This document shows positions 61,413 to 64,000 of a stretch of 64,000 bases of DNA, piece by piece. The DNA is taken from the IMG/VR virus record IMGVR_UViG_3300045282_000294, positions 457 through 64,456 of that record; one strand, given 5' to 3'. The position numbers and the translations under genes are program-made. How positions within the stretch are numbered: position 1 is the first letter of the stretch; each line of letters opens with the position of its first letter. Below the pieces are notes generated by a model. That model was not told the DNA's origin, did no database searches, and saw nothing but the letters and a program-made list of their open reading frames with translations. Origin of the DNA: a virus. Lineage: Duplodnaviria > Caudoviricetes.

Positions 61413-61871
61413 ATGAACGCTGAACAATATTATTCCGCTGTGGTGCTGGCATTCCCGCCCACACCACCTTTGCCGGCACCGCCGCCGTTCGAGGGCGACG
61501 AGGACCGCATCCGGTGGATGAACGAGCAATGGCTGGAGCGCGGCAATTTGGTCTGGCCACCACGTCCTGTCATGCTGCTCAGACTTGGGTCTGCGGCCTT
61601 TGGCGTTAGCCAGGCGGCCATGGTTTCACCTAGTCGCATGCCATCGATTGTCCAGCCCCGCCAGAAAACCATCGCCTTTGGGCGCATCGTTTTAAACATG
61701 AGCTTGGCGTCGCTCGGCCGCACCTTCAGGCGGGACCACACAACGTCGATTTACGCCATCCAGAAATACCGGGCGCTGGTCGAGCGGGCGCTTGGTCTTC
61801 ACCGGGCTCGCCCGGAAAACAGCGAGAGTCCTGAGCCCGGACTGGCCACAACACCGGGCTCGCCCGGGTAA
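61413..61871 (+). CDS. protein with a DnaA C-terminal-like HTH; C-terminus runs through two repeat copies
   Basis: PRQ..SLASLGRTF.RDHTTSIYA. Confidence 0.6.
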   Translation: MNAEQYYSAVVLAFPPTPPLPAPPPFEGDEDRIRWMNEQWLERGNLVWPPRPVMLLRLGSAAFGVSQAAMVSPSRMPSIVQPRQKTIAFGRIVLNMSLASLGRTFRRDHTTSIYAIQKYRALVERALGLHRARPENSESPEPGLATTPGSPG

Positions 61872-61963
61872 TAGCGAGAGAGCAGGGGACCTTGTCACGA
61901 CACCGGGCTCGCCCGGACAAAGCGAGAGCGAAGAGCCGCGGGAGTGCGGCGGAGGCATACGAA

Positions 61964-63283
61964 ATGACGAGTGAACGCAACATCCGTGTGCATCGCCGCT
62001 ATACGTGGAAACTCTATCCTACGGCAGAGCAAGCAACCATTTTGCACGAGCAGCGCATGATGATTGTGGATTTGTGGAATGCGCTGCTGCAGCGCCACGA
62101 GGACATCTGGCGCCGCACGCGCGGGCAGAAAGGCGTCGTACATAGCGAGGCCCGATCGTCTTATACCCTTTTTGACATGACCGGCGAGATTACCGACTTA
62201 CGACGCGAGTGTGCGGAATGGGCCGCGCTTTCAGTTTGGTCCGCCCACGGCGTCGCGGAAGCGCTAGACAATGCCTTCAAAGCCTTTTTCCGTCGCGCCA
62301 AAGCCGGGGCTGGAGCGCAGTCTGGTTATCCTCGTTATCGCCGCCGGCGTGATGGCACGAGTATCCCGCATCGCCATTCGCTGTTTTGGCCCGCCGGCCC
62401 CGGCAAATCGCACGACAGCCGAGCCAAGAGTGGCTCCGGCAGCGGCTGCCTGCTGCGACACAAGCAGGGCCGCACCTGGACTCTCGCGCTCAAAGCCGTC
62501 GATGGCCCGATCCATACCCGCGGTGCGCTGCCGGAGAATGCGCCGTGGGACAAAATGAGTGCGGCCAATGTTCTGTGGCAGGACGGCCGCTGGTGGTTTT
62601 CGGTTTGCGTCGAGATGGTCCCGCGGCGTGTGCCTGGTAGACACCCCATCAGCGTGGACTTTGATTTGATTGATGGACTAGCCTATGTGGCCGAGGACAT
62701 CCCGGGCTCGCACGGGCAAAAGCGAGAGCCTCTGGGCCGTGCAGACCGTCGAACAGAGTCCACAGGGTTTGTGCTGGAGACCCCCGAGCCGTTCTCGCGC
62801 ATTGCGGCGCTGGCGCGCGATCTCGACCAGCTAAAGTCCGCGCGAGACCGCCGCTGGCCGCGCGCAGCTCGAAATGATCCGGACTGGCAAGATGCCGATG
62901 AAGAAATCCGGAGGCTGTCGGCCCGCATCGCGCGCATTCGCCGGGACTGTTTGCACGTCTGGACGACCCGCATCGTGCAGCGCGCTTCAGACCTCACCAT
63001 CCGTCAACCGCGCATCAGTGAACACACGGCCTCGCCGCATGGCGACGCGAAAGAATGGGGCGCCAATACCGGGATTGTATCGGAGCTAAACCGTTCGGTT
63101 CTCTCTTATGCCCCCGCGATGGCGGTGCAGATGCTTGAATACAAAGCGGAGGAAGCCGGCATCCGCTGCGATGTTGTCGTCGATGACTCGCCGGCTATAG
63201 CGATTGGCGGTGCGTTGGTGAAAGCGGGCAAGAAGCTACGACGCAGCGCGAAAGCTGCGAAGGTACCGGGCTCGCCCGGATAA
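61964..63283 (+). CDS. TnpB/Cas12f-like RNA-binding protein, C-terminally truncated and probably nuclease-dead
   Basis: RYTWKLYPTAEQ..WNALL, LDNAFKAFF..GYPRYR, DGRWWFSV; RuvC-I SVDFD; RuvC-II position reads LTIRQP; LEYKAEEAG; no zinc finger or RuvC-III; GGAGG RBS. Confidence 0.8.
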   Translation: MTSERNIRVHRRYTWKLYPTAEQATILHEQRMMIVDLWNALLQRHEDIWRRTRGQKGVVHSEARSSYTLFDMTGEITDLRRECAEWAALSVWSAHGVAEALDNAFKAFFRRAKAGAGAQSGYPRYRRRRDGTSIPHRHSLFWPAGPGKSHDSRAKSGSGSGCLLRHKQGRTWTLALKAVDGPIHTRGALPENAPWDKMSAANVLWQDGRWWFSVCVEMVPRRVPGRHPISVDFDLIDGLAYVAEDIPGSHGQKREPLGRADRRTESTGFVLETPEPFSRIAALARDLDQLKSARDRRWPRAARNDPDWQDADEEIRRLSARIARIRRDCLHVWTTRIVQRASDLTIRQPRISEHTASPHGDAKEWGANTGIVSELNRSVLSYAPAMAVQMLEYKAEEAGIRCDVVVDDSPAIAIGGALVKAGKKLRRSAKAAKVPGSPG

Positions 63284-63594
63284 AGCGAGAGGCCCGAGTC
63301 TCAAAGCGAGAGGGGCCGAGTCTGGCAAGTCGCGCCAGGTTGGCGAAAGTTCACAACACCGGGCTCGCACGGGGAACAAGCGAGAGAACCCTACCGGGCT
63401 CGCACGGGTAATAGCGAGAGTTGGGCCTGCCCGTATAGGGGGACAACACCGGGCTCGCCCGGAGAAAAGCGAGAGTGGAAGTCCCACAGCACCGTGCTCG
63501 CACGAGCAAAAGCGAGACATCGCCTGCAACAGGATCTACTGGTTTCACACCACCGGGCTTGCCCGGATAACAGCGAGAGAAGGAGTAAACTAAG

Positions 63595-63864
63595 ATGGTT
63601 GCTAATATCGCGCAAAAGCAAGGACTGACGATCATCCACCCCTCAGTGAAGCACGAGGTGTCGCTACTCGATAGATCGGTCGAGATGGCAGAGGCTGCGT
63701 TCGACGCGATCATGAGCGGAGCCACGGAGGCGAAAAACTGCAACGTGATGTTGGGAGCCGGTCGCGTGTTGCAGGGCGCGGCGCGGCAAAGGCTCACGCA
63801 GCGTTTGTCGGCGGGCCGGCTCGCGATGCAGGAGGCCAGGCTGGTCGAGCAGTCTGCTGCCTGA
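63595..63864 (+). CDS. hypothetical protein flanked by repeats
   Basis: AAGGAG RBS directly after repeat copy 63551. Confidence 0.55.
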   Translation: MVANIAQKQGLTIIHPSVKHEVSLLDRSVEMAEAAFDAIMSGATEAKNCNVMLGAGRVLQGAARQRLTQRLSAGRLAMQEARLVEQSAA

Positions 63865-64000
63865 TGTGTGCGGCACCGGGCTCGCCCGGGTAACAGCGAG
63901 AGGGTTGACCACCGGGCTCGCCCGGAGAAAAGCGAGAGTGCCCAACGGACTGCCCGCATACCAAGTTGGGACGGATAGGCTCGCGGCAAGGGGTGGCGAG

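Follow-up and report, generated by a model that had tools for sequence, protein, structure and literature searches.

The window analysed here is a 64,000-nucleotide (nt) stretch of viral DNA (Duplodnaviria; Caudoviricetes) comprising bases 457-64456 of the complete 64,456-base virus record IMGVR_UViG_3300045282_000294. Annotation of its open reading frames (ORFs) shows that this soil phage is temperate, with a lambdoid gene layout. Within it lies a compact module consisting of a gene for a nuclease-dead protein of the TnpB/Cas12 type (hereafter the effector), a gene for a small helical partner protein, and many copies of a short repeat, on the following features:

61799..61828, + strand: repeat copy 1 (pseudoknot core), upstream of the effector gene
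61851..61880, + strand: repeat copy 2, its loop containing the stop codon (UAA, 61869-61871) of the upstream DnaA_C-like ORF
61900..61928, + strand: repeat copy 3, 35 nt ahead of the effector ATG
61964..63283, + strand: effector gene, nuclease-dead TnpB/Cas12 type, 439 residues; ATG at 61964, UAA stop at 63281-63283 in the A-rich loop of the next repeat
62699..62728, + strand: repeat copy 4, within the effector ORF, in a 25-codon in-frame insert
63263..63291, + strand: repeat copy 5, overlapping the end of the effector gene
63303..63313, + strand: truncated half repeat, 3' half only
63356..63386, + strand: repeat copy 6, with a G.A mismatch in stem 1
63391..63420, + strand: repeat copy 7, with a G.A mismatch in stem 1
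63446..63475, + strand: repeat copy 8
63489..63518, + strand: repeat copy 9, U-A replacing G-C in stem 1; one mismatch
63550..63579, + strand: repeat copy 10, C-to-U giving a G.U pair in stem 2; 15 nt ahead of the small-ORF ATG
63595..63864, + strand: partner gene, 89 residues, helical, no known family
63873..63902, + strand: repeat copy 11, beginning a ~192-nt tandem unit that crosses the record junction
63909..63938, + strand: repeat copy 12; six more copies follow in record bases 1-456
1321..1350, + strand: solitary repeat copy, stem 1 CCUG/CAGG (compensatory), ~20 nt ahead of a start codon and upstream of the integrase gene

The repeat unit is ~30 nt long, with the consensus ACACCGGGCUCGCCCGG-RNAAYA-GCGAGAG. 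Twelve copies lie at 61799-63938, all on the + strand, with start-to-start spacings of 52, 49, 799, 564, 93, 35, 55, 43, 61, 323 and 36 nt. The initial annotation, made from the sequence without database searches, had counted three of them upstream of the effector gene, one inside it and eight downstream, with spacers between adjacent copies of 23, 20, 65, 5, 26, 14, 32 and 7 nt, and both counts and lengths were reproduced. A gapped pattern returned 11 matches, against 0.05 expected from shuffles; the reverse strand had none. With the copy at 1321-1350 and six in the 456 bases outside the window, the complete record holds 19. For four consecutive genes in window and record, the start codon follows 15-35 nt after the final repeat of a cluster, and the DnaA_C-like and effector ORFs both terminate at a UAA within a repeat's A-rich loop. 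A translated repeat (…PGSPG) also ends the homologs P0001 and P0006. An alternative, longer start for the effector, TTG at 61892, merely reads through the upstream repeat.

The repeat describes an H-type RNA pseudoknot of 28-30 nt: a 4-base-pair stem 1 (CCGG/CCGG), one unpaired base, a 5-base-pair stem 2 (CUCGC/GCGAG), an A-rich loop of 5-7 nt, then AG, with the 5' strand of stem 2 placed between the two strands of stem 1. Aligned across the window and 16 related loci, 110 distinct cores showed compensatory changes in six of the nine pairs (82 cells), and the covariation score of the pseudoknot was reached by no shuffle. Paired cells made up 99%, versus 22-53% with the 3' partner slid by one to three columns, although 101 of the 110 rows had been chosen by a finder that requires pairing, so that the paired percentage is inflated. 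The stem changes between lineages are independent of this bias, because the dominant repeats were found by k-mer frequency and not by pairing; stem 2 occurs as CUCGC, CCCGC, CCUGC, CGUGC, CGCGC and CUGGC, and stem 1 as CCGG, CCCG/CGGG, CCUG/CAGG, CUCG/CGAG, GGCG/CGCC and GGAG/CUCC. Furthermore, in the array of related locus L030, whose rows were gathered with an anchor that leaves out the tested columns, one stem-1 pair was C-G in 7 cases, U-A in 5, U.G in 4 and C.A in none, and therefore the structure is read as RNA on the strand of the effector gene. Covariation thus identifies the repeat as a structured RNA whose predicted pseudoknot adjoins the would-be guide, as had been proposed from the window alone. 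Rfam gave no relevant match at E ≤ 10 in positions 58000-64000 of the window and none at E ≤ 0.1 in five related loci. A sub-threshold Rfam match to the suhB/mmgR small RNA (35 bits versus a gathering score of 41, E 0.0015) was seen at L028 9104-9198.

The effector had been described as a 439-residue TnpB-like ORF that keeps the RuvC-I Asp, reads LTIRQP at the RuvC-II Glu position and ends before the zinc finger and RuvC-III; hidden Markov model (HMM) alignments and fold matching bore out each of these assignments. Its Pfam matches are all under the curated cut-offs (OrfB_IS605, E 2.6e-4; HTH_OrfB_IS605, 0.006; Cas12f1-like_TNB, 0.16, the last over a 19-residue fragment only). When a profile of 27 family members was compared with solved structures, it matched RdCas12n (9J09) at E 6e-16, ISDra2 TnpB (8H1J) at 4.6e-13 and the TnpB structure 8BF8 at about 5e-13. 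The check by structure prediction suggested at the outset gave a concordant answer: a Foldseek search with an AlphaFold2 model (predicted local distance difference test score, pLDDT, 83.1; predicted template modelling score, pTM, 0.67) returned ISDra2 TnpB at E 3e-13, ISFba1 TnpB at 8e-12 and, within a total of 58 chains at E ≤ 1e-3, dCas12f, AsCas12f, Cas12m2 and Cas12k. By Foldseek and profile match, the protein has the TnpB fold, with its WED, REC and RuvC core.

The active site has not been kept. In the HMM alignments the RuvC-I Asp is retained, family 'vsfDl' aligning to 'gvDlG', and the RuvC-II Glu of Cas12n ('lvgfEdl') aligns to family 'ltviap', which is LTIRQP in the window; the residue at the Glu position is Q in the window protein and A in the family consensus. 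The chain ends ~35 residues past YKAEEAGI, short of both zinc finger and RuvC-III. One Asp is left of the RuvC Asp-Glu-Asp triad, and the chain ends too early to include the zinc-finger/TNB domain of TnpB. The effector is predicted from these features to be no longer able to cut DNA. Compared with its 83%-identical ortholog in the sister phage IMGVR_UViG_3300045110_000283, the ratio of non-synonymous to synonymous substitutions (dN/dS) is 0.083 (412 codons; dS close to saturation). The effector family is conserved and under purifying selection.

A word-indexed search returned 158 effector homologs. An exhaustive one returned 883 representatives at E ≤ 1e-3, of which 270 reached E ≤ 1e-10 and 130 reached E ≤ 1e-30; no INPHARED phage was matched by tblastn with the protein. 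In each of the 27 aligned members, which share 39-88% identity, the RuvC-II position is dead and the C-terminus is cut short in the same way. We examined 24 family loci drawn from IMG/VR and GTDB genomes, the three genome loci being metagenome-assembled genomes (MAGs) of Rhodospirillales and Rhodoblastus. The module family is spread in temperate phages of soil Alphaproteobacteria. At least three same-strand repeats were found in or beside the effector gene in 19 of the 24 loci and two repeats in one more, while one of the other four ends at a contig end. The repeat stem sequences differ by protein clade (CUCGC, CCCGC, CCUGC, CGUGC, CGCGC), and protein and repeat thus co-occur and, judged by these stem types, co-vary across related phages. 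It had been argued beforehand that related phages carrying one without the other, together with a protein that does not bind the repeat RNA, would refute the idea; the co-occurrence runs against that outcome. In IMG/VR, the repeat without the effector gene was seen only on incomplete fragments and in one complete genome. A complete 95.5-kb record (G807:C1:34385-34809; loci L098, L106) has a single CCCGG-type repeat beside a weak match to 34 positions of the family profile (E 3.3e-4), and this match may be what is left of the module.

In 18 of 21 loci, the effector gene is immediately followed by a small helical ORF (~77-99 residues, ~85 typical) with a C-terminal RLAAPRL...EAK motif. This partner protein had no Pfam family and no sequence match in the PDB, and a weak match to a PHROG cII family was obtained with one of 18 members only.

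Regular CRISPR-like arrays were found downstream of the partner ORF in 10 distinct phages or MAGs. These consist of 5-21 repeats of 36-37 nt with a period of 72-77 and unique spacers of 35-46 nt, the last repeat often being degenerate; in the sister phage, an array of 10 repeats is followed by xis and int. The window, with spacers of 5-65 nt and scattered copies, departs from the regular repeat-spacer arrangement of type V CRISPR-Cas that is found in the sister phage and nine other relatives. Measured from the end of one handle to the next stem 1, none of 63 gaps in the irregular arrays of L022, L023, L027 and L029 is below 14 nt, and the window minimum is 9. Contigs from other soil runs, with genes 95-99% identical, contain other spacers between the repeats as well as a 183-nt array deletion (evidence limited to low-depth contigs). 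Within one phage, an identical spacer can turn up again in the same or another array (L026 6876-6903 and 9868-9895; L030 6632-6652 and 7034-7054), a pattern that points to array growth via segmental duplication rather than new acquisition. At the record junction of the window phage, the ~192-nt unit, made of three repeats and 98 nt of unique sequence, is repeated in tandem about 2.x times across 63873-64000 and record bases 1-456; its copy number is uncertain, contig depth there being ~3x baseline in run X1. The so-called direct terminal repeat of the record is an identity of prefix and suffix over 21 nt only. Unrelated tandem repeats were also noted in related loci (L037 681-1131, L038 250-322, L033 7188-7269 and L035 1537-1753), with units of 15 nt x about 17, 12 nt x 7, 27 nt x 4 and 72 nt x 4, of which the last look coding.

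Repeats also occur inside the effector gene. The 25-codon in-frame insert that holds copy 4 is absent from the 83%-identical ortholog, and it lies in the loop after the RuvC-I strand (residues 250-266), modelled with pLDDT < 50. At exactly this loop, many homologs carry long inserts made up of translated tandem repeats, and the repeat differs from one homolog to another; the frame is open through two to four internal copies in L028, L031, L038 and L054, and the internal repeat of L028 is identical to that of its downstream array. In the Rhodoblastus MAG (L054 1250-2848), there are two internal arrays, SSRARGEEG x4 in the REC/WED region and CGEPALxGExQ x3 at the usual site, and the frame is open for 542 codons.

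In a maximum-likelihood tree of 19 effector proteins, the window protein is sister to that of the regular-array phage (100/99), with the irregular-array loci L022 and L023 next (100/99). The loci with intragenic arrays form one group (91/89), regular arrays occur in most clades, and the stem types track the clades. Because its sister has a regular array and such arrays are found in most clades, the window array looks derived rather than primitive, a scrambled, irregular derivative of the array kept by the sister phage. The suggestion that the window might represent a proto-CRISPR therefore probably has the direction wrong.

The module stands in the following phage surroundings:

57866-58282, - strand: RusA gene
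58612-58929, - strand: YdaS/Cro-like gene, divergent from the cI-like repressor gene
59028-59786, + strand: helix-turn-helix (HTH)/S24 cI-like repressor gene
1836-2951, + strand: integrase gene

On the + strand, a PDDEXK gene (DUF3799) and a DnaA_C-like HTH gene are followed by the module, an AAA_24 ATPase gene and the integrase gene; this gene order places the module in what we read as a leftward, PL-like accessory/recombination operon. Its direct neighbours in the window are thus the DnaA_C-like gene and the AAA_24 ATPase, and phage recombinases are encoded nearby. In the sister phage, the module lies between YqaJ/RecT and xis/int, and the DnaA_C-like gene is absent. A scan for promoter and terminator signals gave no more than shuffles. 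The initial annotation had seen no tnpA, cas1 or cas2 in the window, and this extends to the whole 64,456-base record, in which profile searches gave zero matches to Cas1, Cas2 and Y1 TnpA with the positive controls detected. No transposon setting was found for the TnpB-like gene, there being no Y1_Tnp match in the complete record and the gene standing in a phage operon.

The simplest account for all lineages together, and one to which we give about an even chance, is a phage-borne, adaptation-free, nuclease-dead RNA-guided module of type V or TldR-like character. It would comprise a non-cutting TnpB-derived protein, the conserved ~85-residue partner, and + strand RNA units in which a pseudoknot 'handle' is followed by variable sequence. 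The account starts from features established directly, namely the dead site, purifying selection, the structure and strand of the RNA, the co-variation of protein and repeat, the CRISPR-like arrays in relatives and the polymorphism of the arrays; from them we infer that the effector binds the RNA, takes guides from it and binds DNA, and what that binding brings about. The repeats, on the same strand as the leftward operon, would be transcribed with it. The protein would then bind each pseudoknot handle and hold the downstream bases as a guide, as suggested by TnpB/Cas12 homology, by co-variation and by the arrays of the relatives. The resulting complex would bind complementary DNA beside a target-adjacent motif and, its catalytic site being dead, would do so without cleavage. 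Bound in this way, and possibly with the partner protein, it could block transcription or replication of the target in the host or in rival mobile elements. Window units with spacers of 5-7 nt are probably not functional guides. The account is favoured by the lack of gaps below 14 nt in the irregular arrays of L022, L023, L027 and L029, and by the guides of 9-11 nt reported for some TldRs in the part of bioRxiv 10.1101/2023.11.30.569447 drawn on here.

Several observations weigh against this account, beginning with the absence of a target for any spacer searched, in every collection covered. A local BLAST of spacers against all related loci, window included, revealed no true protospacer, the core finder being loose and its output noisy. 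The L052 array searched against its own MAG found extra repeat copies only, and the L026 array searched against five related viral records found only repeats and a second array. INPHARED phages gave a single 34-nt chance match to a mycobacteriophage and nothing else, PLSDB plasmids gave no spacer match, and two 24-nt spacer seeds, searched exactly in IMG/VR, gave nothing external. In 401 genomes of the host order, weak matches of 38-45 bits were obtained in 71 genomes, without a shuffled control; they look like chance in GC-rich DNA. The databases searched contain few soil alphaproteobacterial phages. A search for spacer targets with a common flanking motif had been proposed as a check, and no target emerged from the phage, plasmid and host-order collections. 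Also, several window spacers (5, 7 and 14 nt) are too short to guide. Spacers in the regular arrays vary more in length (36-46 nt in L052) than those of arrays built by Cas1-Cas2, the copies 15-35 nt ahead of four consecutive gene starts fit a role at the level of mRNA equally well, and the pairing-based choice of rows noted above bears on the paired percentage. Finally, related phage genomes carry mini-arrays and solitary copies dispersed on both strands, far from the effector gene:

G800 (the record of L026), 4439-4537 and 4819-4917, - strand: scattered copies
G800, 37569-37693, + strand: scattered copies
G002:C447, 23-37 kb: scattered copies

A loose degenerate repeat pattern run against 401 genomes of the host class gave counts near controls, and only G002 stood out. 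The original idea of a phage-domesticated multi-guide repressor survives in part: the conserved dead TnpB derivative and the CRISPR-like arrays downstream of the gene in relatives speak for it, and the lack of a target for any searched spacer against it.

A bolder version of the RNA-guided account, which we think improbable, is that the handles are a self-propagating RNA element spread by recombination, with the effector mRNA doubling as a pre-guide RNA and the copies before genes guiding the complex against the repeat-less allele of the same site in rival phages. The double role of the mRNA is proposed because at least five lineages keep arrays in frame in a surface loop of the effector. If true, this would be a cutting-free descendant of the 'empty-site' recognition of TnpB, serving inter-phage competition or operon autoregulation.

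The placement of the repeats lends itself to another explanation, also raised at the outset, in which the dead TnpB-like protein binds the pseudoknot as an mRNA operator, controlling processing, stability or translation of the next gene, and the arrays are high-affinity sinks or processing cassettes whose spacers carry no information. The position of copies 15-35 nt ahead of the starts of four genes in a row, the upstream ORFs that stop at a UAA in the A-rich loop, the solitary copies in both orientations across related phage genomes, the very short window spacers and the lack of a DNA target would all be accounted for, and copies in the effector's own mRNA could allow autoregulation. Such a regulator leaves unexplained the ORF-free arrays (9-21 units, unique spacers of even length) in a type V-like position downstream of the gene, the turnover of spacers between strains, and the conservation of a full WED/REC/RuvC scaffold; we consider it a serious contender, though an unlikely one. 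Rather lower stands the view that the repeats belong to a mobile or recombinogenic intergenic cassette, resembling promoter early stem-loop (PeSL) elements of T4-type phages or repetitive extragenic palindromic (REP) and miniature inverted-repeat transposable (MITE) elements, which spreads by recombination and shuffles modules, with the TnpB-like gene a mere neighbour. The gene, small ORF and repeats do lie between different neighbours in the window and its 83%-identical sister phage, one copy has been inserted in frame in the effector ORF, the 192-nt unit is tandemly duplicated, and phage recombinases are encoded next door. Yet across deep divergence the repeat sequence follows the protein lineage; the strict strandedness, the tolerance of G.U and the covarying stems reflect selection on RNA structure and not on DNA homology; and the repeat is found in IMG/VR without the gene only on incomplete fragments and, as a single copy beside a weak gene remnant, in one complete genome, all of which makes a gene-independent cassette improbable.

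Solitary units and mini-arrays on phage genomes, in the accessory region of an early operon, recall RNA anti-CRISPRs, which are solitary repeat units, and raise the idea of a decoy or anti-defence RNA that titrates a host effector of TnpB/Cas12 type. This is very improbable, since the phage encodes its own co-varying effector and no array of the repeat stood out in the 400 other host-class genomes, as judged by the loose pattern with its counts near controls. Sites acting as DNA, either origin iterons bound by the DnaA_C-like protein or stoperator-like repressor sites, would fit a DnaA C-terminal HTH protein encoded just upstream and repeats that cluster, share an orientation and, in relatives, recur about every 73 bp. 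G.U is tolerated and C.A never seen, however, compensatory changes affect two interleaved stems, the sister phage keeps the repeats without the DnaA_C-like gene, and the repeats track the TnpB-like protein. DNA-level sites are thus only faintly probable, and the origin/iteron reading was rejected on the RNA-type covariation and the absence of the DnaA_C-like gene from the sister phage. The least probable reading is a functionless, decaying TnpB pseudogene in a repeat-rich region. Truncation, loss of the catalytic Glu, a repeat inserted in the ORF and Pfam scores all below cut-off would suit it, but a dN/dS of 0.083, the identical truncation and C-terminal motif in 27 of 27 aligned homologs at 39-88% identity, the 130 clusters at E ≤ 1e-30, and frames open through the internal arrays of L028, L031, L038 and L054 would not; it was rejected on purifying selection, shared truncation and the frames kept open.

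Nuclease-dead TnpB/Cas12 derivatives (TldR, dCas12f-sigmaE, Cas12m) are emerging as natural regulators resembling CRISPR interference and activation (CRISPRi/CRISPRa). Under the RNA-guided account, the family would add to them a compact effector of ~400-440 residues for which a 28-30-nt pseudoknot handle is enough, along with multi-guide arrays that lack adaptation genes and a dedicated small partner. Such a short handle, well defined by covariation, together with a small protein would be attractive for engineering. In-frame arrays in the effector and handles before phage genes make it a testable question how guide arrays originate and spread without Cas1-Cas2, and they also prompt one to ask whether the phage's own operons are under the control of such systems.

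Dead TnpB/Cas12 regulators are already known, namely TldR, dCas12f with a CRISPR-array-linked cluster, Cas12m, Cas12k and 40 candidate V-U branches, some of them inactivated. The closest sequence and fold matches of the effector are ISDra2 TnpB (8H1J/8EXA) and RdCas12n (9J09), with which it has in common an N-terminal WED strand, REC helices and a RuvC core; both differ in being active nucleases with the full triad and a zinc finger, and TnpB resides in IS200/IS605 elements with one omega-RNA. Cas12m (type V-M) and Cas12k (type V-K) resemble the family as type V effectors that bind without cutting and have arrays downstream but no cas1/cas2. They are larger (about 600 residues); Cas12m keeps a RuvC-like site, and Cas12k works with Tn7-like transposition genes, of which none was seen among the ORFs annotated near the window module. 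The cas1 and cas2 adaptation genes of type V are lacking from the complete record, as they are from several accepted type V subtypes according to the sections of PMC10691335 (PNAS 2023) used here. Those sections present the candidate branches V-U6 to V-U45 as independent TnpB-to-Cas12 transitions with downstream arrays and, in V-U24, V-U43 and V-U44, altered catalytic sites, and they make no mention of intragenic arrays or pseudoknot handles.

With TldR (TnpB-like nuclease-dead repressors), as described by Wiegand et al. in the part of bioRxiv 10.1101/2023.11.30.569447 drawn on here and in PMC13622181, the family shares carriage by temperate phages, the lack of a transposase, newly acquired gene partners and presumed non-cutting, RNA-guided binding. 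The effector and its small ORF correspond to the TldR pattern of a nuclease-dead, C-terminally truncated TnpB-like protein associated with a non-transposon gene, and a structured, co-varying RNA element, a candidate guide RNA, adjoins the effector gene. TldRs in that part of the source have single adjacent guide RNAs, long omega-RNA-like scaffolds and identified targets (the fliC and oppA promoters), whereas the window family has many short pseudoknot handles in arrays, in the ORF and scattered, a different partner, alphaproteobacterial hosts, and no target found. The cluster of array-linked, nuclease-dead Cas12f proteins (Nature 2026, PMC13472631) is similar, in the portion of that article consulted, in its C-terminally truncated dead effector, CRISPR arrays, absence of adaptation genes and proposed transcriptional repression; it is Cas12f-derived, lies on Bacteroidota chromosomes and has predicted separate guide RNA scaffolds. 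The window family matches TnpB and Cas12n best and is phage-borne, and no separate scaffold RNA was seen in it, no systematic search having been made. Full-text literature searches returned no description of the effector family, the per-branch tables of PMC10691335 being outside their scope, so that a prior V-U listing is possible. Set beside these systems, what appear to be new are the effector lineage, the minimal pseudoknot handle, the conserved small partner, the in-frame arrays inside the effector ORF and the handles scattered before phage genes.

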